From Acinetobacter phage Acj61, in the sequence record GU911519.1: DNA of 64,000 nucleotides; one strand, written 5' to 3'. Every line of letters begins with the position of its first letter. The first letter of the stretch is position 1. The notes under the pieces are model-generated. The model worked only from the letters and a program-made list of their open reading frames with translations. It ran no database searches and was not told the DNA's origin. This document shows, in pieces, positions 9,476-49,483 of this stretch. A program made the position numbers and the translations under genes.

Positions 9476-9498
9476 CAAAAGGAGCCGAAGCTCCTTTT
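9476..9498 (-). terminator. rho-independent terminator, UUCG tetraloop
   Basis: Sense GGAGC-UUCG-GCUCC-UUUUGUGCUUUC directly after lysozyme stop. Confidence 0.65.
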
Positions 9499-9499
9499 A

Positions 9500-10072: not shown

Positions 10073-10101
10073 AAATATTTCCTTAAAAGAAAGTATTTAT
10101 G

Positions 10102-33012: not shown

Positions 33013-33022
33013 GTAGAACTCC

Positions 33023-33937
33023 TTATGCATTGATTAGGGTATTAACAATTACTTTTTCTTGCTCTTGAACAGTCAAGGCAAAATACGTGCTTCGTTTCAT
33101 GTAATGAGTATAGATTGTATCATACTCTACTAAAAGATTTTCGACTGCATAGTTTGAAAATATACCATGAGTAACGTATAGGTATAATTTTACACCATTT
33201 TTCGGCTTAAGTACACCGTTTTTTACATTTTCTTTAAAACATTTTGCAACTTCAATGAATGTTCGACCACCTTCACAGATGTCATCGACAACTAAGAATT
33301 CGTTGAACTTTTCAGGTTGTCCTACAATTTGTGAATCAAGCTTGAAGCCCGTGATTTTACCTGTAGCCAGATCGCGAGTCTTATCAAACCGAATGATTGC
33401 ATCAGGAATCTTTTTACGAGCACCATTATCAGGACAGATCAAACCAACATTTTCGAGTTCAACAGTGTTTTGACATAAAACTCGCTGATGAAGATTCAAA
33501 GAGCCTTTGACCAAATCTGTCATGACTTCACTATGGCAGTCACTAAAAACAACGGAATCGAATCCAATTGAGTTGACGAAATCTGCAAAGACTTTAGCTC
33601 CAAAGCCATCGATACCATCAAGCATCGGGCGATCATATCGAGTGTAAGGTGTCGATAAGATATTCAAGCAATACGAACGTGGTCGATTTACAGAGTTTTG
33701 CTCCAAGATATTTTTGATTTGTGCTACAATCATTAGGTCGTCCATCGATTCAACAAATGCATCAATACGTGCAGTTTGCCATTCAAAACCTTTTGTGATA
33801 GATGGAATCAGTACTCGTACTGACCCATCGTTAAAGGTGTTGATCTCGACGCCGACTTCTACAGTTTTAGCACCCATGTACGCTAGTTGCAGTGTATCAG
33901 GGATAAGGTTCACTGTGAATTTTTCGACGACTTTCAT
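33023..33937 (-). CDS. ribose-phosphate pyrophosphokinase (Prs) homologue (candidate Adps of NARP1)
   Basis: 304 aa; PRPP/ribose-phosphate binding loop FLVVDDICEGGRTF (cf. Prs DDIIDTGGT); AAGGAG RBS. Confidence 0.8.
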   Translation of the reverse strand: MKVVEKFTVNLIPDTLQLAYMGAKTVEVGVEINTFNDGSVRVLIPSITKGFEWQTARIDAFVESMDDLMIVAQIKNILEQNSVNRPRSYCLNILSTPYTRYDRPMLDGIDGFGAKVFADFVNSIGFDSVVFSDCHSEVMTDLVKGSLNLHQRVLCQNTVELENVGLICPDNGARKKIPDAIIRFDKTRDLATGKITGFKLDSQIVGQPEKFNEFLVVDDICEGGRTFIEVAKCFKENVKNGVLKPKNGVKLYLYVTHGIFSNYAVENLLVEYDTIYTHYMKRSTYFALTVQEQEKVIVNTLINA

Positions 33938-34110: not shown

Positions 34111-34476
34111 TTAATTGATTTCACCACAGTCACGTAGTGATTTTTCGACTCGAGCTAGATAACCTTCAGTGTATCCAGACCAGTTATTTGCTACAACTCC
34201 ACCATTAAGCTTGTGAGCTGATTCAAGGCAAGTTTTAGCTAATTCGTTAGTGTCGTTGTATACTACATCTCGATTAGTATTACCTGCTATACAAGAGCGA
34301 TAATCTTTTTTGATGTCATCGCGATAAGTCCAGTTGTTCTTAACCGCTTGACGAATTCCACCACCAAATGAACATTCTTTAGCTTCTGCGGCTTGTTCGC
34401 GTTCAAGTTGCTCAGCAGATTTGACACAGCCAGTTAAAGCAATTGCAATTAAAGATACACATAGTAAGGTTTTCAT
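34111..34476 (-). CDS. lipoprotein
   Basis: Signal + lipobox IALTGC; 4 additional Cys. Confidence 0.55.
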   Translation of the reverse strand: MKTLLCVSLIAIALTGCVKSAEQLEREQAAEAKECSFGGGIRQAVKNNWTYRDDIKKDYRSCIAGNTNRDVVYNDTNELAKTCLESAHKLNGGVVANNWSGYTEGYLARVEKSLRDCGEIN

Positions 34477-35459
34477 TTCATTTCACCATTTGGATTATAT
34501 GGAAGTATTATACCATCTTTCATGGCATTTGTAAACTTTGTAATGTAATCATCGTTGTAAAGATTTGTAACTACATCAAAGTTTTCCCAAGCGAATTCAC
34601 GGAACCAGCCTGAAGTAATCGACGTACAGACTTTCTCGAGAGCAATCATGAAACTTTCGTATGGACGAACCATAAACTCATTAGGAATCTGTGAACGTTC
34701 TAATGCAAGGACGTATGATTCTTCGAGGACTCCGAGTAATTGGACTGCCTTGCTTTGAGCAAAGAAACGATCTTTGTCGCAATGAACTTCTTGATTTTCA
34801 GTCATGTAGTATTCGTATGCTGGCTTGTCAAGAAGCTTTACTGCTCGATGAATCGAGTCATGGTCATAAATGTAATTGAAATTTGAATGGAAGAAATCTG
34901 ATTTGCCTACGTTGAGCTTTGGAGTCGCGTAATCGTATGTCTCCTTCATTCGTGCCTGATAGAACTGCTCGTCGATGATCTTTGCACCGATTTTACGCAT
35001 GTTCTTGATGTGTTTCATGGTCTTATGAAAATGAGGACTATTACGAAGATAACGATGACTCATCTTAAGCGTATAAAGCAAATCTAATGACGCATACATG
35101 TAGTTAGCGTAATTGATTGACTCTGGTAGTTTAGGAGCGAGTTGAACTTCATGTTCGAAGCCATGATATAACTGATAAGTCGTAGACTTCTTTGAAGTTG
35201 GAAAGGTGAGTTCCCACATTGATCCGTAATGATTCAAGACGATTGTACCAGTCTTGAATTTCTTAGATGTGGTAATCTTTTCGATTGCAAGAGATGAGTT
35301 GAATTGACGTAAGTAATCAATAAACTCGTATGCAGACTTTTGATTTGGCACGATGATATCGTGATCAAGAGGTTCGAGATTGTGATCGATATGCAGTTTG
35401 TCAAGATGACGAACTAATGCATGAGAACCAATAACGAGAGGTTGAAATGATAATTTCAT
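34473..35459 (-). CDS. hypothetical protein (328 aa; possible degenerate GS...DxD nucleotidyltransferase-like N-terminus)
   Basis: Long ORF; PLVIGSHAL...DHDIIV loosely reminiscent of pol-beta NTase fold; preceded by conserved leader/RBS repeat. Confidence 0.5.
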   Translation of the reverse strand: MKLSFQPLVIGSHALVRHLDKLHIDHNLEPLDHDIIVPNQKSAYEFIDYLRQFNSSLAIEKITTSKKFKTGTIVLNHYGSMWELTFPTSKKSTTYQLYHGFEHEVQLAPKLPESINYANYMYASLDLLYTLKMSHRYLRNSPHFHKTMKHIKNMRKIGAKIIDEQFYQARMKETYDYATPKLNVGKSDFFHSNFNYIYDHDSIHRAVKLLDKPAYEYYMTENQEVHCDKDRFFAQSKAVQLLGVLEESYVLALERSQIPNEFMVRPYESFMIALEKVCTSITSGWFREFAWENFDVVTNLYNDDYITKFTNAMKDGIILPYNPNGEMK

Positions 35460-36280: not shown

Positions 36281-36478
36281 TTAACAAGATTCACTAGAAG
36301 GATACCATTTTCCTTCTTCACCATCATAACGTCCACCCATACCGTAAGCAGGATAAATGTCGAATGACAAGTTATGCTTGTCTGCATGAGCTTCAGCTTC
36401 TGCAATAGCTTTGCTAATTGCGGTATCGAGTTCATCCATACGTTTACGTGGATTAGTTGCTGGTGCACCTTTACTCAT
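36281..36478 (-). CDS. small protein, ...WYPSSESC family, paralogue 1
   Basis: MSKGAPATNPRKRMDELDTAISKAIAEAEAH...GKWYPSSESC; GGAGACTATT RBS. Confidence 0.45.
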   Translation of the reverse strand: MSKGAPATNPRKRMDELDTAISKAIAEAEAHADKHNLSFDIYPAYGMGGRYDGEEGKWYPSSESC

Positions 36479-37067
36479 AATAGTCTCCAAATAATTTAAA
36501 GTCGCCTGATAGGCTTAAGTCCATAGTTGCGATACTGTGGGCGATATCTTCTTTAAGGGTTTGAAGCATTTCGAATGCCTCTTCCATCGTTTTCGCCTTG
36601 CCTAAGTTACAGACTGGAATCATGTAATCTTTTGCAAGACGTAGGGCTTGGCCTGTACCACCAGTCACAAGTCCATCTGGCGTCCAACATAGAATGAAAG
36701 CCACTGGTTCGATTAAATGTGGTCCCAAAATGATGTTACAATTTCGAGCATGCATTAAGCGAGCTGTTGGTGAGCAACGATTCCATGCGGGATGATATTT
36801 CTTTGCTAAGTCCATGACCTTTTTGCTTCGATCAAAAGGCATGATGTTATTGCGATATCCATTGTAGCCAGGGAAAGGAAGATAGTTCCGAAGAGAACCA
36901 TTACCTTGCATAGCTCCATCAATAAACGCAGAATCAGCACCTTTAGCTCCACCTGTTGAAACAGTGTGTCCTTGTTCAGCCATGTATGTTGCAAAGTTTC
37001 TCATACCTTTAAGTATGATGGTAGGAGTCTCGCGACTCCCTATTCCTGCATAATTTAAGACAGCCAT
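36471..37067 (-). CDS. DprA/Smf-like Rossmann-fold (SLOG-type) protein
   Basis: MAVLNYAGIGSRETP...STGGAKGADSAFIDGA matches DprA GSR..P / G-x-GiD motifs; AAGGAGA RBS; track start is TATAATG artefact. Confidence 0.55.
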   Translation of the reverse strand: MAVLNYAGIGSRETPTIILKGMRNFATYMAEQGHTVSTGGAKGADSAFIDGAMQGNGSLRNYLPFPGYNGYRNNIMPFDRSKKVMDLAKKYHPAWNRCSPTARLMHARNCNIILGPHLIEPVAFILCWTPDGLVTGGTGQALRLAKDYMIPVCNLGKAKTMEEAFEMLQTLKEDIAHSIATMDLSLSGDFKLFGDYYE

Positions 37068-37128
37068 TTTGGTCTCCTTCAATTCTTTTAAAACCTTCTT
37101 AGCTAATTTGAGCCATTTGGATGTTTGA

Positions 37129-37170
37129 TTTGATAGGACCATTATACAACAGTCCTATCATAAAGTAAAC
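37129..37170 (-). promoter_or_regulatory. early promoter cassette, perfect palindrome
   Basis: tgataggac|cattatacaac|agtcctatca; TTTACT (37164-69) - 17 - TATAAT (37141-46). Confidence 0.6.
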
Positions 37171-37176
37171 TGCTTT

Positions 37177-38628
37177 TTAAAATTTAATTTGATCTGCTAA
37201 ATCTTCCAATTCGGATCGTGATGCAGCTTGAACTCGATGAACTTTGTTTAGATGCTCTTGAGTTGTTTGCTGAGCATGAGAGATTTCCATTTCATGATCA
37301 CTTGCAGCCGGAATCTTTGGAGCAGTTTCACCGTCAGGTTCAACCCATCGTTGATTGCCTTTCTTGACAACTAATGTGAACTTGTTATTGATCATCTTAT
37401 CACCATAGCGTGATTTGAGCTGTTTGATCAATTGAAGTCCTTGTTGTGCAAGTTCTTCTGTTTCAATGACACCTAACATGAAGTCAGCTGTATGTACAAG
37501 ACCTGCAGATTCAGCAACATCACTCATTGACATGTCTGATGCATCCCATCCACCACGAGTAGTTTGAGCTGCTGACCAAATCAATGTGTTTGTGTCAAAC
37601 GCTAATGCACGAAGTTCTTCGGCAATCGCTTTAACTAATGTGTATGAGTTTTCAGTGTATTGTTTAATACGACATGAACCACAAATACCTAAGTAGTCAA
37701 TGATGATTACGTCAGGCACAAAGCCTTTCTTCAATTTCAACTCGTTGATTAATGCTCGGAATGTGTTAGCATTAGCTCCACCAGTTGCATATTGTTTGAT
37801 GTACAATTGTCCAAGTACGTTAGCTTTTCTCCAACGTTCCATCTTAGACTTGTACTCTGGGTACGAGATTTTGCCATCATCAATATCGTCTAATGTGACA
37901 TCTAACAAGTTAGCATCGATACGTTTAGCACATACCTCTTCTGCCATTTCCATTGTGATGTACAAGACGTTTTTACCAGTCTGCAAATAATCTGCTGCTA
38001 ATGTACAAAGACCTAACGATTTACCAACGTTCGAACCGGCAAGTAAGATGTTTAATGTAGCATTCTCTGCTCCACCTTTAGTGATTCTGTTCAAAATAGG
38101 AAGTTTGAATGGAATCTTGCGTGTTTTGTTTTGATAAGATAACCAACGAGCTTCATAGTCATCCATCCAGTTGTGACCAACTGATGAGTCAAAGCAAACA
38201 CTTAATGCATCGCGCATGATGTCTGGAATTGCACCGACATCTTGAATTTTTCGATTTCTCTGTTCTGGTGGAAGATCAGCATTCGTTTGAATTTGAATAA
38301 TTCGAGATGTTGCGTTGTACATTGCTACCTTTTGAATGTACTTCTCGGTTTCTGGGATTAACCAATCACAGCTTTCTACTTGATCAGAAAGAGAGTTCAA
38401 AAGGTCATTTGCGCCTTTAAGTTCAACTTCGCCTGCACGTGAATTTGATAGTGCAAGATTCAAAGCTACTTTAGATGGCACACCATTATAATCGTTTACA
38501 TGTTTCCGAATTGAGTTATACAAAATTCGTGCCGGTCCTTTCTCGAAGTAGTCTTCATTGAGATATGGCCACACACGTCCAAAATAGTCTTGATTGGCGA
38601 CTAATTGCCCTAAAATCACATCGATCAT
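37177..38628 (-). CDS. 41: replicative DNA helicase (DnaB-like)
   Basis: MIDVILGQLVANQDYFGRVWPYLNEDYFE...LLAGSNVGKSLGL...IIIDYLGI aligns with T4 gp41; AAGGTGGA RBS. Confidence 0.9.
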   Translation of the reverse strand: MIDVILGQLVANQDYFGRVWPYLNEDYFEKGPARILYNSIRKHVNDYNGVPSKVALNLALSNSRAGEVELKGANDLLNSLSDQVESCDWLIPETEKYIQKVAMYNATSRIIQIQTNADLPPEQRNRKIQDVGAIPDIMRDALSVCFDSSVGHNWMDDYEARWLSYQNKTRKIPFKLPILNRITKGGAENATLNILLAGSNVGKSLGLCTLAADYLQTGKNVLYITMEMAEEVCAKRIDANLLDVTLDDIDDGKISYPEYKSKMERWRKANVLGQLYIKQYATGGANANTFRALINELKLKKGFVPDVIIIDYLGICGSCRIKQYTENSYTLVKAIAEELRALAFDTNTLIWSAAQTTRGGWDASDMSMSDVAESAGLVHTADFMLGVIETEELAQQGLQLIKQLKSRYGDKMINNKFTLVVKKGNQRWVEPDGETAPKIPAASDHEMEISHAQQTTQEHLNKVHRVQAASRSELEDLADQIKF

Positions 38629-38649
38629 ATTTCCACCTTTGTCCAATTA

Positions 38650-38690
38650 GAAATCATTATATACCACAAATGGTCCCGAAGGACCATTGC
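38650..38690 (-). promoter_or_regulatory. extended -10 promoter for gene 41 fused to UUCG terminator hairpin
   Basis: Sense ...ggtccttcgggacc-atttgTGgTATATAATg; no clear -35. Confidence 0.4.
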
Positions 38691-39023
38691 TTAAAACATA
38701 AATCGTTTTGTTGATTTGAGAATCTCGTCAAGCTGAAGCTTGAGCACATGTTCGACATGTGGTGTCAACTCTGCCTTACGATCTTCACTTGGAGTACTGA
38801 AGCCATATGATACTCCATTACCAGAAATTTGAAGTTCTGTAACGTAAACAATATGATCAGTACCGTCTTCCAGTTTAATCAGGATTTCTTGCTTGACATC
38901 TTTCATGGCCTCTTTAATGATACCTAAAGACTTGTCATAGAGAGTGTTATCAGGTGGACCTGATGGTTCAATGTACTCTTCTACGTCTTCGATGTCTAAA
39001 TTCAAATCGAAATCATTAGCCAT
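38691..39023 (-). CDS. hypothetical acidic protein (in the position of T4 gene 40)
   Basis: 110-aa ORF between gene 41 and glycosyltransferases. Confidence 0.45.
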   Translation of the reverse strand: MANDFDLNLDIEDVEEYIEPSGPPDNTLYDKSLGIIKEAMKDVKQEILIKLEDGTDHIVYVTELQISGNGVSYGFSTPSEDRKAELTPHVEHVLKLQLDEILKSTKRFMF

Positions 39024-39026
39024 TTC

Positions 39027-40145
39027 TTACTCCATCAATGCCTTTTCCCACATTGCGAATACACGTTCTGGGCGATACTGCTCATACAATGCATTAGCTC
39101 GTTCAACACGTTGTTCAAACGTATCGGTGAATTCATTCAATGCCTTTGAATATGCAGCAATAATTTCTTTGGTGTCCATACCATCTTCAATCCAAACGAT
39201 CTTAGTGTTAGGGTCATGTTCAAGCGTTGCATGACTATAACCACGTTGAATCAATTGCAGAACTGGAACACCTTTCTCAATTGCTTCCATTGAGCCATGT
39301 TCGATGGTACCTGTGTCATGACAAGTATTGACGAGCACAAGTGCTTCTTTCAATGTTTCTTGAATCAATTTACGGGGTTTGTCCATTTGAACGAATGGCT
39401 CTTTCAAATATTTCTTTGGTGGAGCCCATTGGCTTGGCAAGAACGCAACGATTTTGTGAGGACACTGTGCCATAGATTCTAACGCAACGTTTGTCTTTCG
39501 GAATTTCAAGTCATAACGCTGAGCTTGGACAACAGTACCATTTGAAGGCAGAACTTCAGGCTTTTTCTCAATCAGAGTTGCTGGGAAGAAATTGTCTGAA
39601 ATGATGTCATGTTCAGCCCAGTAATCAAAATCGATAGCATCAACAGCAAGTTTGGTATTCATTTTAGAATAGACACGAGTTGTCAAATCCTTAAATGTAT
39701 GAGTTGGCACTAAGTTCTTACCACCGTTCTGATGAATGAAGATTGCTGTACGCCAGATCGAAATAAGTGTACGGATGCCTGGGTCAAGTGGAGTTGCTAA
39801 AAGATTTCGAATTTTTGGTCCAAGTCCTAATTTGACAAGACCATTGATTACACCTTTAGCGCCTTCAACAGTAACGACAACATCATATTTTGAGTAGTCT
39901 TGCTCAGCAATTTTCTCAACGATTTTATTGCCATGTTTGATTGTGTACTTATCCACAATAGGATAATCAATCGAGATCGGATTTACTTTGTACGGACCAA
40001 AGTTCTCGTCACCAAAAGCCATATAATCAATTTCATGATGTTGGCTCATTGTTTTGATGAAGTTTAATTGAACCGACTCGAGACCACCTGAAATGTAGTC
40101 TGCGTTGAAAGTGATAAAACGACATGGAATGTATAAAATTTTCAT
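39027..40145 (-). CDS. GT-B fold glycosyltransferase (candidate DNA hmC glycosyl/arabinosyl transferase), paralogue A
   Basis: 372 aa; C-terminal ...LVNTCHDTGTIEHGSMEAIEKGVPVL fits the GT-B E-x7-E sugar-donor motif; ~45% identical to neighbour. Confidence 0.65.
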   Translation of the reverse strand: MKILYIPCRFITFNADYISGGLESVQLNFIKTMSQHHEIDYMAFGDENFGPYKVNPISIDYPIVDKYTIKHGNKIVEKIAEQDYSKYDVVVTVEGAKGVINGLVKLGLGPKIRNLLATPLDPGIRTLISIWRTAIFIHQNGGKNLVPTHTFKDLTTRVYSKMNTKLAVDAIDFDYWAEHDIISDNFFPATLIEKKPEVLPSNGTVVQAQRYDLKFRKTNVALESMAQCPHKIVAFLPSQWAPPKKYLKEPFVQMDKPRKLIQETLKEALVLVNTCHDTGTIEHGSMEAIEKGVPVLQLIQRGYSHATLEHDPNTKIVWIEDGMDTKEIIAAYSKALNEFTDTFEQRVERANALYEQYRPERVFAMWEKALME

Positions 40146-40176
40146 GTTAGGTCCTGACGTGATTGTAATGATATTT

Positions 40177-40196
40177 ATAGAGCCCGAAGGCTCTAT
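40177..40196 (-). terminator. terminator-like UUCG hairpin after glycosyltransferase B
   Basis: atagagcc-cgaa-ggctctat; weak U tract. Confidence 0.45.
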
Positions 40197-40202
40197 AACA
40201 TT

Positions 40203-41321
40203 TTAGCTCAAAACTGTTTCCCACAGTTTGAAGTATGCATCTTTGTTGAAACGATTGTACAAATATTCTGCACGTTTGACACGATTTTCTTGAGTGTCAG
40301 TGAATTCATTTAATGCTTTAGCATACATATCAATCAATGTTGCAGTGTCAGTACCTTCTTCAAATTCAACACGAACTGTTGTCGGGTCGTATTCGAATGT
40401 TGCATGATTGAATCCTTTTTGAATCAATTGCAAGACCGGTACACCTTGTGAAATGGCTTCAAGACTTCCATTTTCAACTGTGCCAGTGTTATGACATGTG
40501 TTGACAAGAACTTTAGCAACAGAGATTTCGATTTGGATTTCACGACGAGATGAATCGATCATGACCCATGACTTCTCTAACCATTTCTTGCCTGGTGCCC
40601 ATTTGCTAGGACAGAATGCAAGTTTAGGACCTTGATACAAGTCCATTGCACCGAATGCTACATTTGATTTACGAAATGCATTGTCAAAACGTTGAGCTTG
40701 AACAATGTGTCCTTCTGATTCAAGGACGTCTGGCTTTTCTTCAATCAAGATCGGTGGATAGAAATCATCTGCGATGATGTCATTGGCTTGCCAATATTCA
40801 AAGTCTATGACTTCTGCTGCAATTCGTGTATTCATTTTCGAGTACACTTGAGCTGCTAAGTCTTTAAACGTTTGAGTTGGAACAATGTTCTTTCCGCCTA
40901 ATTTGTGAACCATTACTGCGTTGTTCCAGCATTGAACGATACCACGAACCGATGGGTCAAGTGGAGTTGCAAGAATATTGCGAACTTTTGAAATTTGACC
41001 AAGTTCAGCTAATGCATTGAGAACCATCTTACTGCCTTCGATAATAACGATAGCATCATATTGGTCCCAATCTTGAATTTCTTGCAACAAGTACTTGATC
41101 TTGTATGCATGTGCTGTAGTGAACTTACCACCAATCGGTTTGTTGATAGACAATTCATTGACTGCTAAGTGTCCGAAGTCTTCATCGCCAAATGATACAT
41201 AATCGATGTCATGTACCTTTGACATGTTGTTGATGAAGTTGTACTGAACAGCCTCAAGTCCGCCATCGACACGATTGATATTGAAAGGTACTGAACGGCA
41301 AGGCAAATATAAAATTTTCAT
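40203..41321 (-). CDS. GT-B fold glycosyltransferase, paralogue B
   Basis: From MKILYLPCRS...; ...VNTCHNTGTVENGSLEAISQGVPVL; GGAGCATAAC RBS. Confidence 0.65.
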   Translation of the reverse strand: MKILYLPCRSVPFNINRVDGGLEAVQYNFINNMSKVHDIDYVSFGDEDFGHLAVNELSINKPIGGKFTTAHAYKIKYLLQEIQDWDQYDAIVIIEGSKMVLNALAELGQISKVRNILATPLDPSVRGIVQCWNNAVMVHKLGGKNIVPTQTFKDLAAQVYSKMNTRIAAEVIDFEYWQANDIIADDFYPPILIEEKPDVLESEGHIVQAQRFDNAFRKSNVAFGAMDLYQGPKLAFCPSKWAPGKKWLEKSWVMIDSSRREIQIEISVAKVLVNTCHNTGTVENGSLEAISQGVPVLQLIQKGFNHATFEYDPTTVRVEFEEGTDTATLIDMYAKALNEFTDTQENRVKRAEYLYNRFNKDAYFKLWETVLS

Positions 41322-41322
41322 G

Positions 41323-41862
41323 TTATGCTCCAATGAATTCTTTGATTTTCAAATCAGCTACTACTTGATCAAATGGCTTGGCTTCGATAACGCCATTGTA
41401 CACATCATGTTCAAGAATTTTGTATGGAGTAATCCAAAGAGCTTTGTACAAGCTTTCGAATTCATCAACGATCTTATTGAATTGATCTTCTGAGATTGCA
41501 ATCAAATCATCGGCGAAATTATCTTCAAGTTTGTTACGAGTGAGTCCAACTACAAGAACTTGGTTGTTCTCGATGAATCGTTGGAAGTCATCCATGAACA
41601 CATCAGTTCGTTTTCCACGAAGTACACTTTCATACACAATGTTACTTAAACCACCACGATCAAGAACATAAGTCTGATCATTATTGATATATTGTAACAT
41701 AGTTTCAAAGATAGCAACTTCATTACGTGTTACACAAGTGAAACGTCCTTCACTTGTCTTTTTAGGAAACTTCATTACCTTTGCTCCAAGGCTTTCGAGG
41801 CCTTGGATAAAAGTAGTTTTTCCTGAGTTGTCGGGACCTTCAACCAGAATTAACTTAGCCAT
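41323..41862 (-). CDS. thymidylate-kinase-like dNMP kinase
   Basis: P-loop LILVEGPDNSGKTT, cf. Tmk FIVFEGxDGSGKTT. Confidence 0.6.
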   Translation of the reverse strand: MAKLILVEGPDNSGKTTFIQGLESLGAKVMKFPKKTSEGRFTCVTRNEVAIFETMLQYINNDQTYVLDRGGLSNIVYESVLRGKRTDVFMDDFQRFIENNQVLVVGLTRNKLEDNFADDLIAISEDQFNKIVDEFESLYKALWITPYKILEHDVYNGVIEAKPFDQVVADLKIKEFIGA

Positions 41863-42779
41863 ACATCTTCTCCATTTTCGATAACTACATCTTCGTATAG
41901 AGGCATTATATACTCGGATTCAATGTCAGCATCGAAATAGATCAATTCTGCAAGACCTGGATGAAAAACTTTTTGAGGATTTTCATTGTAGATAATTTTT
42001 GGTTGTCCAATCAAAACTCGATAATAATCTTGCTTTGACAACTTGATATTGTGAATCACAGCTCGTTCAGGATATTTTGAACGATCGAACGTGTCATTAG
42101 GGTCGGTCACAAAGACTGCACCATTTTTGAGTTCCATAGATTTCTCTACAACTGCATCAAAATCATAACACTTATCCGAGATTCGGAATGGATGAAAAAT
42201 AGTTCTATCACCAATATGAATAACTTCTGCATCACCCAAATATCGGTCAATGATTTCTGGACTCACAACCTTTTGACAAACAACAATTTTTTCTGCCGGG
42301 GCACCATTTTCAACAAGTACATCTTTTTGACATTGATTCAAAACGAATGTACGTTGTGATAAGATCACACTTGCTACATCAGTTTGTAAGAATCCATCAA
42401 TGTATGCTCGTGGATTTTCAGGGTCAGCAGTAATGTTGAAGTTGAAGATGATTGGAATCTTGCCGAAGTAACCAGTGATATCCGTCACAACGATATCGCA
42501 ATCCAAGAATGTGATGATCTTTGCAATCTTATCACGATTACAATTCCAGAACGATCGACGTGTTTCAAATGCATTAGTCATGTAAGGCACTTGGATGTAC
42601 ACGAATTCCGGAAAGAGTTCTTTAAGTTCATCATAGTCTGCAATAGCTGTTGGGATTGTAATTACATCACCAGCTCGAGCACGACTTAAATGAAGTTGGA
42701 AATTGCCGTCCTTAAGGACTGAGTATAACCCAGTCTCATAAGAACGCATAGAGAAGATTGGTACAATCAGCTTACGCAT
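41850..42779 (-). CDS. hypothetical protein (309 aa) within DNA-modification cluster
   Basis: AAGGAACCTGAT RBS; no motif recognised. Confidence 0.5.
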   Translation of the reverse strand: MRKLIVPIFSMRSYETGLYSVLKDGNFQLHLSRARAGDVITIPTAIADYDELKELFPEFVYIQVPYMTNAFETRRSFWNCNRDKIAKIITFLDCDIVVTDITGYFGKIPIIFNFNITADPENPRAYIDGFLQTDVASVILSQRTFVLNQCQKDVLVENGAPAEKIVVCQKVVSPEIIDRYLGDAEVIHIGDRTIFHPFRISDKCYDFDAVVEKSMELKNGAVFVTDPNDTFDRSKYPERAVIHNIKLSKQDYYRVLIGQPKIIYNENPQKVFHPGLAELIYFDADIESEYIMPLYEDVVIENGEDVWLS

Positions 42780-42789
42780 ATCAGGTTCC

Positions 42790-43503
42790 TTATTTTACCC
42801 ATGGTAAAAATGTTTTGACATATTCGAGGTCTCGTTCAAAGACATGAGCAGATACGATTGAATGTGAATATGTACCCAATTCTACTCCACATTTATCAGC
42901 AATGTGTTGCATAAATTTCTGCATCAAGTAGAAATCTAATTGCATAACAACAGCACAGTTTTGACTACGCATGTGTGTATGAGCATAAAGGCGACCTTCA
43001 CGAATATAGAACGTCACAGAATCAGTACACGGATATTCCAATGTTTCATCTGCATCAAGAAGAACTTGGTCCTGTTCTTGCAAGATTTGAAAAACTACTC
43101 GACGTGAGTTTTCCTTTTCTTTGAGCTCTTTAATAAGAGCGGGCATTTGTGCAGCGATTCGTGGACCATAGAAAGTGTTGAAATTCGCAGGAAGAGATTC
43201 CGTCTTCGGTTTCGCAAGGAATTTCGCGACATTTGGATATTCCTTAAACGCTTGTTCCGCATCTGTGCCACCTGCAATCATGAATTCCCAGAACTTTTCT
43301 GCATAGTTGTAATCAATACGATTGATCTTTTTGTTTCCGAAAGTTGCACCTTCTTCAGGATATTCAACTTCGATTAGAAGTGATCCAATTTCACGACATT
43401 TGCCAATGCGAGATTCAGTGATGAATTCAGGAGTTTCTACTACTTTGGCGACAGTCAATAAGAATGCTTCTTCAAATGTTGCTGCGTCTATATACTTTGA
43501 CAT
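42790..43503 (-). CDS. 42: dCMP hydroxymethylase (thymidylate-synthase family)
   Basis: ...YPCTDSVTFYIREGRLYAHTHMRSQNCAVVMQLDFY... matches T4 gp42 FMCTNTVQYLIRD...MRSNDVV.G..D active-site region (catalytic Cys). Confidence 0.8.
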   Translation of the reverse strand: MSKYIDAATFEEAFLLTVAKVVETPEFITESRIGKCREIGSLLIEVEYPEEGATFGNKKINRIDYNYAEKFWEFMIAGGTDAEQAFKEYPNVAKFLAKPKTESLPANFNTFYGPRIAAQMPALIKELKEKENSRRVVFQILQEQDQVLLDADETLEYPCTDSVTFYIREGRLYAHTHMRSQNCAVVMQLDFYLMQKFMQHIADKCGVELGTYSHSIVSAHVFERDLEYVKTFLPWVK

Positions 43504-43889
43504 TACTTCACCTGTGGTTTGTATGGTTGTTTAGATAATAATTCATTTTTGAAGAAAGCATCTTTGAATTCTTGTGGATTCATCGATTTGTCATCAATAA
43601 TCCAGTCATACACGGGCTTGTGAGTCATGAGTTCATGATATTTGACGCCGATCTTTTCAAGATTCTTGACTAAAGATGGAACGATATCTGTTGCGATACG
43701 TCCAGGACCAACTGACTTCATTCCACGAGCAGTGTAAAGAGTGATATGATGACCTTGCTCATACAACTCATTGATAATTTGAACCATTGTTACATCAGGC
43801 TTGAAATTTTCATAATCTCTGTTGTCGTCCCAGAGAGTTATCGTATCATCGATGTCCACACAAAAATGCTTGCGTTTTACATTGTCCAT
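43503..43889 (-). CDS. HAD-superfamily phosphatase
   Basis: From MDNVKRKHFCVDIDDTIT (DxDxT motif I). Confidence 0.6.
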   Translation of the reverse strand: MDNVKRKHFCVDIDDTITLWDDNRDYENFKPDVTMVQIINELYEQGHHITLYTARGMKSVGPGRIATDIVPSLVKNLEKIGVKYHELMTHKPVYDWIIDDKSMNPQEFKDAFFKNELLSKQPYKPQVK

Positions 43890-44209
43890 TAGTATAAGTC
43901 CTCTGAAAATAAAATACCTGGCGAACCAGTAACACGACGAATTTGATTTGCTGCTTTGGCAATTAACCAAGCTTCTTCACGATCAACAAAACGTCCTTCC
44001 GATGTGGTGAATCCTTGATGCCAGTGATTGTAGTCAGCATCTTCACCATAAATTTTATCAGCGACATTAAAAAATATATCGTCGCCATGACGTTTAGACA
44101 TAATCATCATATTGTCTTCAGGATTCAGTGCCGAAGCACTGATCACGATTTCCTGAAGTTGACGATGTCCAGTATGTTTATCAACACATAATAGAGCACC
44201 GATTGGCAT
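43889..44209 (-). CDS. hypothetical protein in sugar cluster
   Basis: 106-aa ORF with stop/start overlaps on both sides. Confidence 0.45.
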   Translation of the reverse strand: MPIGALLCVDKHTGHRQLQEIVISASALNPEDNMMIMSKRHGDDIFFNVADKIYGEDADYNHWHQGFTTSEGRFVDREEAWLIAKAANQIRRVTGSPGILFSEDLY

Positions 44210-45867
44210 TAGATTTTCTCCCAGTCAAAAACTTGTACAGGATGAGCATTAGGGCGATACTTTTCACCAGTTTCTAAGTCTGTAAGAAGCCATTTGCCTG
44301 GATTCTTTGTCTTTAGAACTGATACGACGAGATCAGTATCATGTGAAACTTTACCATTACGAAGACGTCGACCAGCTTCATCAAGAGTCCGAGTCAATAG
44401 ATGCATCCCGTAATAGTATGCACTTACTGCTTTGATTGGATTGTTCTTGAAATATCCAGCTAATGCGATCCAAATAACTGCAACCCATAGACGATGGAAA
44501 ATGTTGAAGTTTGGATTGTAGAAGCTATCAAGTTCATTGATCTTGACTGTTGCTGATTGACCATCAATCGATAATCCACCCCACATAGGGTCAGAATTAA
44601 ATTCATCATAACCACTTAATGCATAAAGCACTTTAGCTTCATCATAAATTCGTGGACCAAATAATTTCGTTTTACCGAAGTAGCCACGTGGGTCAATCAA
44701 ACGAACACCTGAATCATCGAGCATCAAGTTACTAAAGTTCGGATCACCATGAATGATGTGGTAGTTATTGTGAATTGATTCATAGATCAAATGTGAATAT
44801 GCTTGTTGCAACATAGTCTTCAAACGACCAATACGAGTTCCATTGACAAAACGAATCTTGCCGAATGAATCAATGACACCTTGAATTTCTTTACAACGAG
44901 CTAAAACTTTATCGATGACTTCATATTGATAATCACGAGCTTTAGTTTCGTATGTGACTTTGCATCCAATTTCTGGGAATTTCAAAGTTTCAAGAATTTC
45001 ATCCAATAATTCTGGTTTGTAGACTTCGAACATTGGTTTGCCATGAATTCGTTCCATTTTGAAGTTGCATGCATTAGGAGTATTGCGTCGATCAATAATC
45101 TTTGGCAATGCTGGGCTATCAACATGGTCATACCATGACAGTTCTTCAGCTTGCAGTTCACGACCCTTTTCATTTAATGCAGCTTTGAAAACTACATCAC
45201 CAGAGAAAGTAACTGAGTTGAATTCACGATTCAATTCACGATGACGATGAGCATTTTGAAGTTTCGGTTTGTCACCTAAATCAGTGAGCCCAATCAATTC
45301 TTCTTGATAGAACGAATCTTTAACATCGAGCAATTCGACAAAGTCACGACCTTTGAAATATTCGTTGGCTTCATCTTTGTCATCGAAACGCTGAATGAAG
45401 AAATCATCGTACTGATAAATGCCAACTACGTTGCCGCCGGTTCCACCGGTTTCTTTGAGTTCATTGCCATCAAAGTTATAGCGGCATTCATCACCGAATG
45501 TGTAGATCGCATCATGGTCCCATGAGAATGCATCAAATTCTGGAATGACATCACACCAGTTGAAAACGACATTATGCCCATTGATTCGATTGGCAACTTG
45601 AGATATAGCATAGGCTGAACCATAAGCTTCGTCAACTGTTTCAACTGTGATGTTGAGTTTAAAGACTTTGGCATATTCGCGAACTTGTTTTGCAAACTTG
45701 CTATGAACGACAACAATAATTTCTTGAGCACCAGCTTGTTTATAGATCGAATATAAATGATGCAGAATTGTGTGTTGTTTGTAGTTCACCAAGACTTTAG
45801 GAATATGGTGTGTGATTGGATACAATCGAGTTGCAAGTCCAGCACCAAGAATAACTACTTTTTTCAT
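44209..45867 (-). CDS. bifunctional sugar-1-phosphate nucleotidyltransferase / sugar kinase (APH/ChoK-like)
   Basis: N-term ILGAGLATRLYPITHHIPKVLV (G-x-G-x-R-x-P...K NTase loop); C-term ...HGDPNFSNLMLDD...IDPRGYFG (Brenner HxDxxxxN + DFG-like) kinase motifs. Confidence 0.7.
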   Translation of the reverse strand: MKKVVILGAGLATRLYPITHHIPKVLVNYKQHTILHHLYSIYKQAGAQEIIVVVHSKFAKQVREYAKVFKLNITVETVDEAYGSAYAISQVANRINGHNVVFNWCDVIPEFDAFSWDHDAIYTFGDECRYNFDGNELKETGGTGGNVVGIYQYDDFFIQRFDDKDEANEYFKGRDFVELLDVKDSFYQEELIGLTDLGDKPKLQNAHRHRELNREFNSVTFSGDVVFKAALNEKGRELQAEELSWYDHVDSPALPKIIDRRNTPNACNFKMERIHGKPMFEVYKPELLDEILETLKFPEIGCKVTYETKARDYQYEVIDKVLARCKEIQGVIDSFGKIRFVNGTRIGRLKTMLQQAYSHLIYESIHNNYHIIHGDPNFSNLMLDDSGVRLIDPRGYFGKTKLFGPRIYDEAKVLYALSGYDEFNSDPMWGGLSIDGQSATVKINELDSFYNPNFNIFHRLWVAVIWIALAGYFKNNPIKAVSAYYYGMHLLTRTLDEAGRRLRNGKVSHDTDLVVSVLKTKNPGKWLLTDLETGEKYRPNAHPVQVFDWEKI

Positions 45868-45940
45868 ATTTGAATAATTCCTAAGAAGAACTGTGATACG
45901 TTAATTATACCACAGTTCTGAGTTAAAGTACATTGCTATT

Positions 45941-46573
45941 TTATTTAGTTTCGGACTTTAACATAGCACCTAATGAACCGCCAGGATGATACGCATAGAA
46001 ATCTTCACGTTTAAAGCCAACATACTTCGACAGAATGACACCGATTGTATCGAGAAGAGCCAATAGAACTGTCGTACTGGTCGTCGGAGCCAAGTTATTG
46101 TCATCACATTCTACAATGCCAGGAATACCAAATTCGATGTCAAATGGAGCTTTCTGCTCATCAGTCAAATTCGGGTTACAATGTAACAAGATTTGAAGAA
46201 CATTTGGACGAATTTTATTGAGGTGCTGTGCCATGTACTGCATTTCGTCAGTTTTGCCTGAACGTGAAACGTGAATAACTACGTCGTCATGTGCAATGAA
46301 GCCAGCGTCACCGTGTGAATAATGACATGTGTTAAGGTACATTGATGGGATACCTAAGCTTGCGAAAGTTTCAGAAGCTTTAGCTGCCATGTTTGCATTT
46401 TTACCAACACCGGTGATCATGATACGACGACGATAATTTGATGCTGCAACTGGCTTTAACGTTTCAATCATGCTGTCATATTTGTCGCCGTTAAGAGCGA
46501 TCGCGGTATGAAGATGATCTAATGCGTCATTTTGAGCTTCAACAACTTGTAATGCTAAATCGATATTGTCCAT
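45941..46573 (-). CDS. SIS-domain sugar-phosphate isomerase, KpsF/GutQ-type (arabinose-5-phosphate isomerase-like, no CBS domains)
   Basis: ITGVGKNANMAAKASETFASLG, VIHVSRSGKTDE and APTTSTTVLLALLDTIGVILSKYVGFKREDFYAYHPGGSLG match KpsF SIS domain. Confidence 0.7.
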   Translation of the reverse strand: MDNIDLALQVVEAQNDALDHLHTAIALNGDKYDSMIETLKPVAASNYRRRIMITGVGKNANMAAKASETFASLGIPSMYLNTCHYSHGDAGFIAHDDVVIHVSRSGKTDEMQYMAQHLNKIRPNVLQILLHCNPNLTDEQKAPFDIEFGIPGIVECDDNNLAPTTSTTVLLALLDTIGVILSKYVGFKREDFYAYHPGGSLGAMLKSETK

Positions 46574-46581
46574 ATTTACCT

Positions 46582-46854
46582 CTAAATACTAGAAACTGCT
46601 GCGAACTCAGCAATTGCCATAATGAATGTTACAAGAACGAACGCTACTGTGAAAATAAGAGTTCGAACTATTTGAGAACCGGTTAGCCCTTTCAATGCCA
46701 AGATGAATGCGATAATCCATCCGATAGCAGTCCAACCGAAGAAAATGTTGACCATCAAAACTGATACGTTGTTTGATGTCGTGTAGTAGGTCGCTGTGAT
46801 TCCTGGTAGCAAGTACAGGAAAAATAGTAACGCACAAACTAATAAGATACTCAT
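46582..46854 (-). CDS. small membrane protein (3 TM; in the position of T4 imm)
   Basis: From MSILLVCALLFFLYLL...; GAGGAAATCATC RBS. Confidence 0.5.
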   Translation of the reverse strand: MSILLVCALLFFLYLLPGITATYYTTSNNVSVLMVNIFFGWTAIGWIIAFILALKGLTGSQIVRTLIFTVAFVLVTFIMAIAEFAAVSSI

Positions 46855-46876
46855 GATGATTTCCTCATCTAAATTA

Positions 46877-46920
46877 TTTGATAGGACCATTATAACACAG
46901 TCCTATCAAATCGTATACTG
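46877..46920 (-). promoter_or_regulatory. early promoter cassette, perfect palindrome
   Basis: tgataggac|cattataacac|agtcctatca; -10 46889-94; -35-like GTATAC. Confidence 0.5.
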
Positions 46921-46929
46921 CTTTATGAA

Positions 46930-48102
46930 TTAAAAACCGAAAATATCTTCAAGAGAAGCTTTCTTTTCACATTGAAGCCCAGCGGCTTCACACATACCTT
47001 CAAGTGGAGTCTTGAAAGATTTACCGAATAATGAGACATAATCGACTGAACGTAGAACGTTTTGACGAATCTCAGTTGGAATCTCTGTACCAGAAGGCCA
47101 TGCAATCAATTTGTCACCAAATGGGTTGGCAGGTACTAATGGCAGAACCATGACCTTTTCGCCTTCTTGGATGTCTGTTGCACCAGGGATTTCTTTGATT
47201 GCTCGTTTGTAAGTCAGAACTCCACGAATATGAGCAGGACACTTGAGACCAGGGAATCCATTGTCATCATATTTAGCAATGTTGTTTGCAGACGAAACTT
47301 TAGCGATCACTTTGTAATCAAGAGCTCGATATTCATTTTCAAACTCTTTGTAGTAAGTTTGAAGTGATTTCTCACCTTCTTGAAGCATTCGGCGAATAGA
47401 TTCAACTAATGCATCTTGAACTGCCTTAGGAGTAGATGATTGCTGAGTTTCCATTCCCATGATTTTCAAGTATGGTGTCTTGAATCGAGTACCTTCCATG
47501 TCCCATACACAAAGTGCATATCGTTTCTTAGCTTTCCAGAATCCACCGATACCTTCAGAACCAAGTGGTGGTGCAGAGATTGCTTCACGATCCATAAACA
47601 TCAAATGTTCGCGATTGTTCATGTACTCACACATTTCACGATATGCTGTATCAATCATTGGTTCCATTTTCTTGAGACCAAATTGATTCAAGAATTCGAT
47701 CAAATCATTTGTCTCTTTGAAACGTTCGATGCCAACTTTTTCAATTACTTTGTCAACACAGACATAGATCGAATCTGTATCACCAGCAATAACGAATGCA
47801 TGTCCTGTAGTTCCACAGACTTTATTCAAGTACTCGTTAACTTTTCGTTCAATCCATTGAATTGCCATTTGTCCAAACGTAGTAATTGCTGCAGCATTTC
47901 GAAGATCATAGAATCGGAAATAAATATTACCTAAAGCACCATACAACGAGTTAATGAGTAGCTTTCGGTTGATCTGATTCGTGTCACACAACATGATGAA
48001 ATCGGCACAATCTTGTTCAAGTTTTTCGATTTCTTCGTCAGACAGTGTTTGAAGATAAGCGATTTCTTCGTCAGTGAAATCACGTCCAAAGTCAAGGTTC
48101 AT
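46930..48102 (-). CDS. 43: DNA polymerase, family B, C-terminal cistron (palm motifs A/C, thumb) = 43B
   Basis: MNLDFGRDFT...NRKLLINSLYGALGN (motif A)...FVIAGDTDSIYV (motif C)...KKRYAL; own GGAG RBS and ATG at 48102. Confidence 0.88.
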   Translation of the reverse strand: MNLDFGRDFTDEEIAYLQTLSDEEIEKLEQDCADFIMLCDTNQINRKLLINSLYGALGNIYFRFYDLRNAAAITTFGQMAIQWIERKVNEYLNKVCGTTGHAFVIAGDTDSIYVCVDKVIEKVGIERFKETNDLIEFLNQFGLKKMEPMIDTAYREMCEYMNNREHLMFMDREAISAPPLGSEGIGGFWKAKKRYALCVWDMEGTRFKTPYLKIMGMETQQSSTPKAVQDALVESIRRMLQEGEKSLQTYYKEFENEYRALDYKVIAKVSSANNIAKYDDNGFPGLKCPAHIRGVLTYKRAIKEIPGATDIQEGEKVMVLPLVPANPFGDKLIAWPSGTEIPTEIRQNVLRSVDYVSLFGKSFKTPLEGMCEAAGLQCEKKASLEDIFGF

Positions 48103-48484: not shown

Positions 48485-49019
48485 CTTTATTTTGAAGTTT
48501 GAAACGACGATTCAAGTCAACGTTAATGTTGAGATATCCTGACACGTTTCGTGAAATTTTGTCTGCAACACCTGCATCGTTTGCAAGTGAAACAAGTTCA
48601 GTCAAACGAATTTCAGCTTCATTGATCTCGCCTGTGTAGTCTGATGAGCTATAACGCTGAGAATAATTTGCATACGTGTAATCATGTACTGCAGATTGAA
48701 TTCGACGTTGTAATTGATCGATCATAGATGTGCCTCGTTGATAGTAGACTGGCTCTGGTTTCTTCCAATCATATGGGAATAATTTGTGGCACTTTGTGCA
48801 ACGTTTTTGAGGAGGATTCGATAGTAACATACGTCCTTCCTGAAATTCATGTTCGCATTCTGGAATACGAGGCTCGATACCTGAAACACATCCAGTTGTT
48901 AAGCTCAGAGGTGCTTGCACTGGCGGTGTAGCAACAAGTATTGAATGTTTCAATTCAGGTGCAGGTTGTCCATATACACCATTGAACCATTGTTCAGCTA
49001 AAGATTTCATACGAACCAC
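48462..49019 (-). CDS. hypothetical Cys-containing protein
   Basis: 185-aa ORF inside the gene-43 insertion. Confidence 0.45.
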   Translation of the reverse strand: MVRMKSLAEQWFNGVYGQPAPELKHSILVATPPVQAPLSLTTGCVSGIEPRIPECEHEFQEGRMLLSNPPQKRCTKCHKLFPYDWKKPEPVYYQRGTSMIDQLQRRIQSAVHDYTYANYSQRYSSSDYTGEINEAEIRLTELVSLANDAGVADKISRNVSGYLNINVDLNRRFKLQNKVEGEKYE

Positions 49020-49483
49020 TCCGGTTGATTACGATTTTTCCATTCAGCAAGATTTCGTTTTTCAGTCATGTACAACTCGCGATACAATTGAACTGTGTCT
49101 GCGTTGTGTACTACACGTCCAGGCAAAACTGCAACGAATGGAGTCAATTCACCTTTTCCATCAGGAATTTTATCAAGAACATCGATAAACAAAGGAATCA
49201 AACGAGAACCTGCATGTACCTTACCATATCGATGAGTGTACTCATCAAGAAGAGCCATGTTAAGTTCGAGTAGATATTCAAAGTTTGCTTTAGATTCACG
49301 AACCCAAACTGCTGAAGGATGATTGACATGAGTTTTACGATACATATCTTCCGTAGCTAAGCCGAAAACATGGCATGCAGTCGAAAGAAGTTGATTGTAC
49401 TCAGTAATCATTTTAACAACGTGTTTGTTGCCATGTGCTTGAGCACATAGATTTATGTCGTGATCTAAAAGAAAGATGTTCAT
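49007..49483 (-). CDS. hypothetical protein
   Basis: 158-aa ORF. Confidence 0.5.
   Translation of the reverse strand: MNIFLLDHDINLCAQAHGNKHVVKMITEYNQLLSTACHVFGLATEDMYRKTHVNHPSAVWVRESKANFEYLLELNMALLDEYTHRYGKVHAGSRLIPLFIDVLDKIPDGKGELTPFVAVLPGRVVHNADTVQLYRELYMTEKRNLAEWKNRNQPEWFV

Follow-up and report, generated by a model that had tools for sequence, protein, structure and literature searches.

A Straboviridae-type cytosine-arabinosylation cluster predicted between gp40 and imm of Acinetobacter phage Acj61

The 64,000-nucleotide stretch of the Acinetobacter phage Acj61 genome analysed here (sequence record GU911519.1; the window) carries between gp40 and imm a block of genes that is very probably the cytosine-arabinosylation cluster of the Straboviridae, by which the phage DNA would come to contain arabinosyl-5-hydroxycytosine. 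Gene content, orthology, catalytic motifs, diagnostic residues and a GT-B fold are read directly from Acj61, and all enzymatic activities and the DNA chemistry are assigned by homology to phages DLP3, RB69, HY126 and Maestro, in which they have been demonstrated. The gene-level finding is already in the literature for Acj61, and the chemistry is solved in close relatives: Thomas et al. 2018 (PMC6024577) relate Acj61p076 and Acj61p077 by homology to the RB69 transferase ORF003c and give Acj61 gp84 as the full-length homologue of RB69 ORF53_52c, and Nikulin and Zimin 2021 (PMC8056088) tabulate Acj61p076 and note two transferase homologues in the gp40-polymerase region of Acj61. New here is an asymmetry of constraint within the cluster, in which the chain-extending pair of transferases is the most constrained and the chain-initiating transferase the least. 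An earlier note on this DNA had predicted arabinosyl-5-hydroxymethylcytosine; its cytosine hypermodification, its arabinose and its several GT-B enzymes stand, whereas the 5-hydroxymethylcytosine (hmC) base, the identification of gp42, the order of sugar activation and a remark on gp40 do not.

The block lies entirely on the minus strand and is tightly packed. In order of transcription it encodes a SIS isomerase (45941-46573), a fused nucleotidyltransferase/kinase of 552 amino acids (44209-45867), a 106-amino-acid open reading frame (ORF; 43889-44209), a HAD phosphatase (43503-43889), a ThyA homologue (42790-43503), a 309-amino-acid ORF (41850-42779), a Tmk-like nucleotide kinase (41323-41862) and two paralogous transferases of 372 amino acids, here called b (40203-41321) and a (39027-40145). 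Every ORF of the earlier list was recovered at these positions, as was the dCTPase considered below; that list had passed over the 106-amino-acid ORF inside the block. Gene junctions are mostly -13, -1, +1, +3 or +10 nt, and only the 73 nt that follow the isomerase gene and the 57 nt between the 372-amino-acid paralogues are true spacers. Because most pairs of genes meet at +1, -1 or -13 nt, co-transcription and translational coupling of the block are suggested; promoter and terminator consensus scans of positions 38000-47500 gave counts not above those of shuffled controls (34 against 28.7±5.2 and 8 against 5.7±2.6), and the transcription unit is therefore proposed from gene spacing. The GC content of the block (0.38-0.39) is that of the rest of the window, with no compositional sign of foreign origin.

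Cytosine arabinosylation has been characterised by Lee et al. (NAR 2026; PMC13326640) for the gp76-gp83 cluster of DLP3 and for gp45-gp55 plus gp3 of RB69. By liquid chromatography-tandem mass spectrometry and nuclear magnetic resonance, the DNA of both phages is without deoxycytidine (dC) and contains arabinofuranosyl-5-hydroxy-2'-deoxycytidine, in which the sugar is ether-linked directly to C5; mono-, di- and tri-arabinofuranosyl 5-hydroxy-dC occur in DLP3 DNA, and the mono- and di-arabinofuranosyl forms in RB69 DNA (PMC13326640). Arabinosylated 5-hydroxycytosine (5hoC) was also found in the Acinetobacter phage Maestro (Mahler et al., Cell Host Microbe 2025, as relayed in PMC13326640). DLP3, a Lazarusvirus, was compared here through its proxies DLP2, Lazarus and Maestro, with which Acj61 has in common the order of genes from gp40 to imm/gp43B, all eight enzymes, the two transferase paralogues of RB69 gp3 type and a ThyA homologue with the same D169N signature, at protein identities of 67-87%. 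In the phage collection searched, which does not include Acj61 itself, the best DNA matches of the block are to Acinetobacter phages of the Twarogvirinae (Lazarusvirus, Hadassahvirus Maestro and DLP2), with ~77% identity over ~80% of its length. Gene order follows Lazarus from rIIA onwards, and within the block gene order and one-to-one orthology are shared with Maestro, Lazarus, DLP2 and RB69. Acj61 differs from the DLP3 proxies in its first transferase, which is only 50% identical, in an extra Arn.3-like ORF, and in a genome backbone that is much more diverged outside the block, megablast coverage being only 13% for the first 25 kb.

The gene set that goes with arabinosyl-5hoC, namely a ThyA homologue with Asn169, an arabinose-5-phosphate isomerase (API), an AfhE-type fusion, an AfhF-type HAD phosphatase, a first glycosyltransferase and glycosyltransferases of gp3 type, is present in full. 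The identity of the base is indicated by the ThyA homologue (42790-43503), an orthologue of RB69 gp48 and DLP3 gp80 that matches Pfam Thymidylat_synt at 2.3e-13. It shares 68% identity with RB69 gp48, 80% with its Maestro counterpart, 81-82% with those of Lazarus and DLP2 and 75.5% with that of Ac42, and only 23-25% with T4 gp42. The PDB entries 9iqu/9iqc/9ir2, structures of a ThyA homologue that differs little from RB69 gp48, match it at 4e-108. By alignment and motif scan, the residues equivalent to positions 143, 169 and 177 of E. coli ThyA are Glu, Asn and Asp (E/N/D) in Acj61, DLP2, Ac42 and RB69 and Asp at all three positions (D/D/D) in T4 gp42; the Acj61 signature can be written D169N/N177D/L143E. 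The hydroxylases that form 5-hydroxy-deoxycytidine monophosphate (5-hydroxy-dCMP, 5hodCMP) are marked by a diagnostic Asn where E. coli ThyA has Asp169, and RB69 gp48 and DLP3 gp80 produce this nucleotide in vivo from O2 with a flavin cofactor, incorporation from 18O2 having been recorded for RB69 gp48 (PMC13326640). Because of its 68% identity to the assayed RB69 gp48, its 23-25% identity to T4 gp42 and its E/N/D residues including D169N, the Acj61 protein is, by homology, a 5-hydroxy-dCMP synthase and not the gp42 dCMP hydroxymethylase of the earlier note, so that the base would be 5-hydroxycytosine and not hmC. The RB69 precedent invoked for arabinosyl-hmC has itself been superseded, as RB69 was first published as carrying that nucleotide (PMC6024577) and has since been revised to arabinosyl-5-hydroxycytosine (PMC13326640; PMC13390438).

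Arabinose as the sugar is indicated by the SIS isomerase (45941-46573), a predicted single-domain API orthologous to DLP3 gp83 and RB69 gp55. In an NCBIfam scan it matched TIGR00393 (KpsF/GutQ) at 1.2e-29 and KdsD at 8.7e-27 and no GmhA model at E<=0.01, which agrees with its proposed KpsF/GutQ type and speaks against a heptose isomerase of GmhA type. It also matches the API structures 5uqi (4.8e-25), 3etn (2.1e-20) and 2xhz in PDB, its GVGKN, HGD and HPGG motifs are intact, and it is 86% identical to the Maestro protein, 78% to those of Lazarus and DLP2 (DLP2 041) and 58% to RB69 gp55. The 552-amino-acid fusion (44209-45867), predicted to be bifunctional and orthologous to DLP3 gp82, RB69 gp52:53 and HY126 AfhE, begins with a sugar-1-phosphate nucleotidyltransferase domain (Pfam NTP_transferase, 1.6e-11, residues 3-100, with many NCBIfam models of the same activity) in which the motif GAGLATRLYPIT is intact in the translation. 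Its C-terminal APH-like kinase domain has the motifs HGDPNFSN (HxDxxxxN; residue 373) and IDPRG (residue 391), and the whole protein is collinear with RB69 gp53 plus gp52 (52-62% identity; Maestro 71%, Lazarus and DLP2 73.5%, DLP2 042). The HAD phosphatase (43503-43889), orthologous to DLP3 gp81, RB69 gp51 and HY126 AfhF and predicted to convert arabinose-1,5-bisphosphate (Ara-1,5-P2) into arabinose-1-phosphate (Ara1P), has a DIDDT (DxDxT) motif at residue 12, matches PDB 9iqw, a HAD phosphatase, at 2.2e-52 and 1xpj at 3.9e-10, and is 74% identical to its Maestro orthologue, 74-75% to those of Lazarus and DLP2 (DLP2 043) and 66% to RB69 gp51.

He et al. (Nat Chem Biol 2026, as relayed in PMC13326640) showed for HY126 that UDP-arabinose is made from arabinose-5-phosphate (Ara5P) by the kinase/nucleotidyltransferase fusion AfhE and the HAD phosphatase AfhF, with Ara-1,5-P2 and Ara1P as intermediates. 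From these homologues we infer that the Acj61 cluster builds UDP-arabinofuranose (UDP-Araf) from ribulose-5-phosphate via Ara5P, Ara-1,5-P2 and Ara1P. API family membership and orthology to HY126 and DLP3 thus uphold the earlier proposal of arabinose made from ribulose-5-phosphate through a nucleotide sugar. The proposed sequence of phosphatase and then anomeric kinase gives way to the AfhE/AfhF order, in which the kinase acts on Ara5P, the HAD enzyme removes the 5-phosphate and uridylyl transfer follows.

The 309-amino-acid ORF (41850-42779), orthologous to DLP3 gp79 and RB69 gp46:47, had been put forward as a possible further transferase in the addition of successive sugars, and Foldseek structure comparison is in keeping with this, the matches to HepE and MshA (3c4q) giving it a GT-B fold; a sequence-profile search of this family against PDB returned no match, so the fold is seen by structure comparison only. 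The same structural matches are listed for DLP3 gp79 and RB69 gp46:47, the proposed chain-initiating alpha-arabinosyltransferase (PMC13326640). The ORF matches at 100% identity an Acj61 protein annotated 'conserved hypothetical phage protein'. It is 49% identical to its Maestro orthologue, 50% to those of Lazarus and DLP2 and 55% to RB69 gp46:47, and it adjoins the hydroxylase gene, the place of the chain-initiating GT-B gene in an arabinosyl-5hoC cluster. It is probably the first (alpha) arabinosyltransferase.

The two 372-amino-acid paralogues, also correctly recognised earlier as GT-B glycosyltransferases, had no match in Pfam or NCBIfam and were assigned through PDB 9iqz and RB69 gp3 as predicted GT4-like arabinosyltransferases of RB69 gp3 type. 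Paralogue a (39027-40145) matches 9iqz/9ir0, deposited as 'phage HY126 glycosyltransferase', at 9.3e-91, and paralogue b (40203-41321) matches phrog_8302 at 2e-187 and RB69 gp3 with 41% identity over its full length. The 9iqu, 9iqw and 9iqz sets, all very strong matches to proteins of the cluster, are apparently one deposition series. Paralogue a corresponds to DLP2 048, Lazarus gp072 and Maestro 077 at the DLP3 gp76 position (87% identity to Maestro, 85-86% to Lazarus and DLP2, 42% to RB69 gp3), and paralogue b to DLP2 047, Lazarus gp073 and Maestro 078 at the gp77 position (85% to Maestro, 86-87% to Lazarus and DLP2). As each has its own orthologue in each of these relatives and the two are 54% identical to each other, the duplication is older than these phages. 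In DLP3, the third arabinose is transferred to the DNA by gp76 and gp77 acting together, with UDP-Araf as donor (PMC13326640). Since both Acj61 paralogues are 86-87% orthologues of the DLP2 pair at the gp76/gp77 positions, tri-arabinosyl-5hoC, with the chain length of DLP3, is on balance the expected product.

In the comparison with Lazarus, every gene has reached saturation at its synonymous sites (proportion of synonymous differences, pS, 0.5-0.77), which argues that no part of the block was recently transferred. Nonsynonymous divergence (dN) is lowest in the window for the extension transferases (0.10 and 0.12) and the hydroxylase (0.13), reaches 0.20-0.30 in replisome genes and is highest for the first transferase (0.43). 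These rates indicate strong functional constraint on the ThyA homologue and on both extension transferases. The same asymmetry appears between Lazarus and Maestro, in which the paralogue pair is 84-92% identical and the first transferase 71%. Recent horizontal transfer was considered as a source of the high transferase conservation relative to Lazarus and rejected: pS in these genes (0.65-0.75) is saturated as elsewhere, and the conservation is therefore attributed to purifying selection, seen as low dN. Replacement of the 309-amino-acid ORF by an allele from an enterobacterial phage was likewise not supported; its best matches in the phage collection are in Enterobacter, Kosakonia and E. coli phages (55-59%, against 50% for Acinetobacter phages), and the family evolves fast everywhere (Lazarus-Maestro 71%, Lazarus-RB69 46%).

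These rates bear on the strongest of the alternatives, in which Acj61 has the same base and sugar and a glycan unlike that of DLP3, either mono- or di-arabinosylated only or built with other linkages or anomers. The divergence of the 309-amino-acid ORF, with the highest dN in the window and only 50% identity to its DLP2 and Lazarus orthologues, would allow this, as would the variation in chain length among relatives, with one or two arabinoses per 5hoC in RB69, one to three in DLP3 and one in Thanatos (PMC13326640); the paralogue pair may also behave differently in Acj61. However, the extension transferases pair one-to-one with those of DLP2 and Lazarus at 86-87% and show the strongest constraint of any genes in the window, and the first transferases of RB69 and DLP3, which are equally diverged, both go with an alpha-Araf-5hoC linkage. 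We consider a different glycan unlikely.

The Tmk-like kinase (41323-41862), orthologous to DLP3 gp78 and RB69 gp45, matches phrog_761 at 1.8e-29, has the P-loop GPDNSGKT and is 69% identical to the Maestro protein, 67-68% to those of Lazarus and DLP2 (DLP2 046) and 44% to RB69 gp45. Its position suggests a second alternative, to which we give somewhat less credence still, in which the first arabinose is put on 5hodCMP and this kinase phosphorylates the glycosylated deoxynucleoside monophosphate (dNMP), so that the first step is pre-replicative and chain extension alone takes place on DNA. Kinase, first transferase and hydroxylase form a tight triad of genes, with a 13-nt overlap between the first two and +10 nt to the third, which is kept in RB69, Ac42, Lazarus and DLP2 and recurs, according to PMC13326640, as genes 214-216 of Rhizobium phage RL38J1, an unrelated phage. 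A separate gp1-type kinase already acts on 5hodCMP, and the individual glycosyltransferases were inactive on 5hoC-DNA, the authors leaving the order of glycosylation unresolved (PMC13326640). A fuller form of this alternative, in which the triad includes a dedicated glycosyl-dNMP kinase, DNA is polymerised from a pre-glycosylated dCTP analogue and the Arn.3-like ORF serves as an accessory factor, is a shade less probable again; it is not specific to the Acj61 window, and He et al. 2026 may already settle it.

Far less credible is a ThyA homologue that acts as a dCMP hydroxymethylase of gp42 type, which would give DNA with arabinosyl-5-hydroxymethylcytosine. Membership of the thymidylate synthase superfamily (the Pfam match at 2.3e-13), the dCMP-selecting Asp177 and an acidic residue at 143, as in T4 gp42, and the original RB69 report of arabinosyl-hmC (PMC6024577) are all compatible with it, but the protein resembles RB69 gp48 and not T4 gp42, has the Asn169 of the hydroxylases where T4 has Asp, and the RB69 base assignment has been explicitly corrected (PMC13326640; PMC13390438). 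Least probable of all, to the point of being negligible, is that the sugar genes are auxiliary metabolic genes for the host envelope, since, although API ordinarily supplies the synthesis of 3-deoxy-D-manno-octulosonic acid (Kdo), the HAD phosphatase has a weak match to a capsule-biosynthesis phosphatase family (TIGR01689, 1.6e-12, below the model cutoff) and older annotations use capsule-gene labels, these genes alternate with, and are translationally coupled to, those of the cytosine hydroxylase and DNA transferases, Pfam, PHROG and NCBIfam scans of the cluster ORFs found no Kdo-8-phosphate synthase or CMP-Kdo synthetase, and the orthologues in HY126 yield UDP-Araf and DLP3 gp76 and gp77 put Araf on DNA (as given or relayed in PMC13326640).

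Several points weigh against reading the block as a DLP3-like arabinosylation cluster. The searchable literature mentioning Acj61 reports no chemical analysis of its DNA, and DLP3 is represented in the comparison by its proxies. Between the first transferase and its DLP2 orthologue, the proxy for DLP3 gp79, identity is only 50%, and with RB69 gp46:47 it is 55%; the activity of this enzyme was not reconstituted for any homologue in PMC13326640. Either paralogue may add the second arabinose and the other the third, in DLP3 as in Acj61, the Tmk-like kinase has only a tentative place in the pathway, and the operon contains the extra Arn.3-like ORF.

If the block is a cytosine-arabinosylation cluster, the pathway would begin with the dCTPase (24571-25089), which would deplete dCTP, exclude cytosine from phage DNA and supply dCMP. 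The ThyA homologue would hydroxylate dCMP at C5 with O2 and a flavin cofactor, and the resulting 5-hydroxy-dCMP would be raised to the triphosphate by nucleotide kinases, a gp1-type dNMP kinase encoded outside the window and possibly also the Tmk-like kinase of the cluster, for incorporation by the phage polymerase as 5-hydroxycytosine instead of cytosine. In parallel, the SIS isomerase would convert ribulose-5-phosphate into Ara5P, the kinase domain of the 552-amino-acid protein would phosphorylate this to Ara-1,5-P2, the HAD phosphatase would take off the 5-phosphate, and the N-terminal nucleotidyltransferase domain would join Ara1P and UTP into UDP-Araf. The 309-amino-acid GT-B enzyme would then link the first alpha-Araf to the 5-hydroxyl group and the RB69-gp3-like paralogues would lengthen the chain, most likely to the DLP3-like beta-Araf-(1-5)-beta-Araf-(1-3)-alpha-Araf-5-hydroxy-dC. 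DNA modified in this way would be protected against type II restriction, against glycosylases of the Brig1 type and against some CRISPR systems.

Known systems resemble this arrangement in part. The enzymes of RB69 and of E. coli phage HY126 (Afh proteins; PDB 9iqu/9iqc, 9iqw and 9iqz) are shared, with identities to RB69 of 68% for the hydroxylase, 66% for the HAD phosphatase, 52-62% for the nucleotidyltransferase-kinase, 58% for the API, 44% for the Tmk-like kinase, 55% for the first transferase and 41-42% for the extension transferase; unlike Acj61, RB69 has a single extension transferase, located beside rIIA outside the cluster, keeps uvsX next to gp40, has an extra gp49 and the U32-peptidase-like gp50, and carries at most two arabinoses in its DNA. 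The glucosyl-hmC system of T4 occupies the same slot (40 ... 42-imm-43) and likewise uses a dCTPase, a dCMP modifier of the ThyA family and GT-B transferases acting on a UDP-sugar, so that the gp56 dCTPase, common to both kinds of system, does not discriminate between them. T4 performs a folate-dependent hydroxymethylation at C5, whereas Acj61 is predicted to use flavin/O2 hydroxylation; the predicted Acj61 sugar, a pentofuranose, would need a donor made by the phage itself. The marks of a T4-type system are missing, as Asn replaces Asp at position 169 and the 64-kb window, to which the statements on missing T4 genes refer, contains no homologue of the alpha- or beta-glucosyltransferase.

Acinetobacter phage Ac42 has, like Acj61, an E/N/D hydroxylase (75.5% identity), a first transferase, a Tmk-like kinase, a HAD phosphatase, a nucleotidyltransferase-kinase and an API, with an Arn.3 gene at the same junction, and differs in keeping uvsX and in carrying homing endonucleases. 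Because its region (3598-10265) has no extension transferase of RB69 gp3 type, its gene content suggests that Ac42 DNA contains mono-arabinosyl-5hoC. This content contradicts the 2021 statement that Ac42 is without arabinosylation-related homologues. In Rhizobium phage RL38J1 (Pootjesviridae), a D169N 5hodCMP synthase adjoins a glycosyltransferase and a nucleotide kinase, and 5hoC is glycosylated stepwise as predicted for Acj61; this phage belongs to an unrelated family, has no arabinose pathway and uses hexoses (galactose/glucose).

The flanks of the block are gp41 and gp40 on one side and an Imm homologue and 43B on the other; gp40, imm and 43B also lie on the minus strand and stand outside the pathway. 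The 110-amino-acid ORF at 38691-39023, which the earlier note took for a mere positional stand-in for gene 40, is a true gp40 head vertex assembly chaperone (Pfam Phage_head_chap, 6.3e-23; phrog_999, 2.2e-33; 46% identical to T4 gp40). The superinfection-immunity homologue at 46582-46890 matches Pfam Imm_superinfect at 2.5e-11 and is 30% identical to T4 Imm. The gp56-type dCTPase (24571-25089, minus strand) holds up, with 72% identity to the dCTP pyrophosphatase gp047 of Lazarus, phrog_173 at 2.2e-35 and Pfam dUTPase_2 at 8.4e-6. In agreement with the absences reported earlier for uvsX and the glucosyltransferase genes, tblastn with T4 uvsX, beta-gt and alpha-gt and with RB69 gp50 gave no match in the window; it does find gp47 and gp55, the genes flanking alpha-gt in T4.

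The 106-amino-acid ORF (43889-44209), a member of the Arn.3 / phrog_839 family, shares 1 nt with each neighbouring gene, has the conserved C-terminal motif QGF.T..GRF.DREEA..IA.AA.QI...LFSEDLY and corresponds to no recognised pathway step; a fold comparison of it returned no match. A gene of this family is not found at the junction of the phosphatase and kinase/nucleotidyltransferase genes in Maestro, Lazarus, DLP2 or RB69, and in Ac42 it stands there with a homing endonuclease gene and a further pair of small ORFs; the junction may simply be tolerant of insertions. The 57-nt spacer between the transferase genes holds a hairpin (40175-40198, minus strand) that reads TTATAGAGCC-TTCG-GGCTCTATAA on the coding strand, with a perfect 10-bp stem and a UUCG tetraloop. 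We take it to resemble the C(UUCG)G hairpins, noted for their stability, that occur between genes of T4, and it could be an mRNA-stabilising or processing element. In the 73-nt gap between the isomerase and kinase/nucleotidyltransferase genes (45868-45940, minus strand), a 9-bp inverted repeat, AGAACTGTG ... CACAGTTCT, surrounds TATAAT; a terminator is annotated at the equivalent place in Maestro.

Elsewhere in the window, the gene for the gp43 DNA polymerase is in two parts, 43B (46930-48102; 70.5% identical to Lazarus gp43B) and 43A (52090-53598), both on the minus strand, with ~4 kb of small ORFs between them, among which is a phrog_624 DNA-binding protein (49007-49483); the split is common to Acj61, Lazarus and Ac42. 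A DprA-like recombination-mediator protein (36471-37142, minus strand; phrog_768, 9.5e-56) is encoded immediately upstream of gp41, and the location of its Lazarus homologue ~11 kb away, near the dCTPase gene, indicates a local rearrangement. A nicotinamide phosphoribosyltransferase gene (31228-33030, minus strand; phrog_448, 4.6e-176; Pfam NAPRTase, 1.4e-29) overlaps that of a ribose-phosphate pyrophosphokinase-like protein (33023-33937, minus strand; phrog_619, 1.7e-65). The pair looks like a module for salvage of nicotinamide adenine dinucleotide, and the first 50 kb of Lazarus contain no homologue of either gene. A 328-amino-acid protein (34473-35459, minus strand) contains DUF7275 (5.2e-70) and DUF7277, its Lazarus homologue being annotated 'putative nucleotidyltransferase'.

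The pathway predicted for Acj61 represents a second way, distinct from the glucosyl-hmC of T4, in which cytosine is concealed in T4-like phages from defences based on restriction, glycosylases or CRISPR, and it rests on an unusual switch of the thymidylate synthase fold from folate to flavin/O2 chemistry. Public annotations of its genes as 'dCMP hydroxymethylase', 'thymidylate synthase', 'phosphoheptose isomerase', 'DNA alpha-glucosyltransferase' or 'capsule biosynthesis' are misleading, and the D169N signature lets the base be called from sequence alone. The prediction of tri-arabinosyl-5-hydroxycytosine in Acj61 would bear on the sequencing, cloning and defence sensitivity of Acinetobacter phages that are candidates for therapy.

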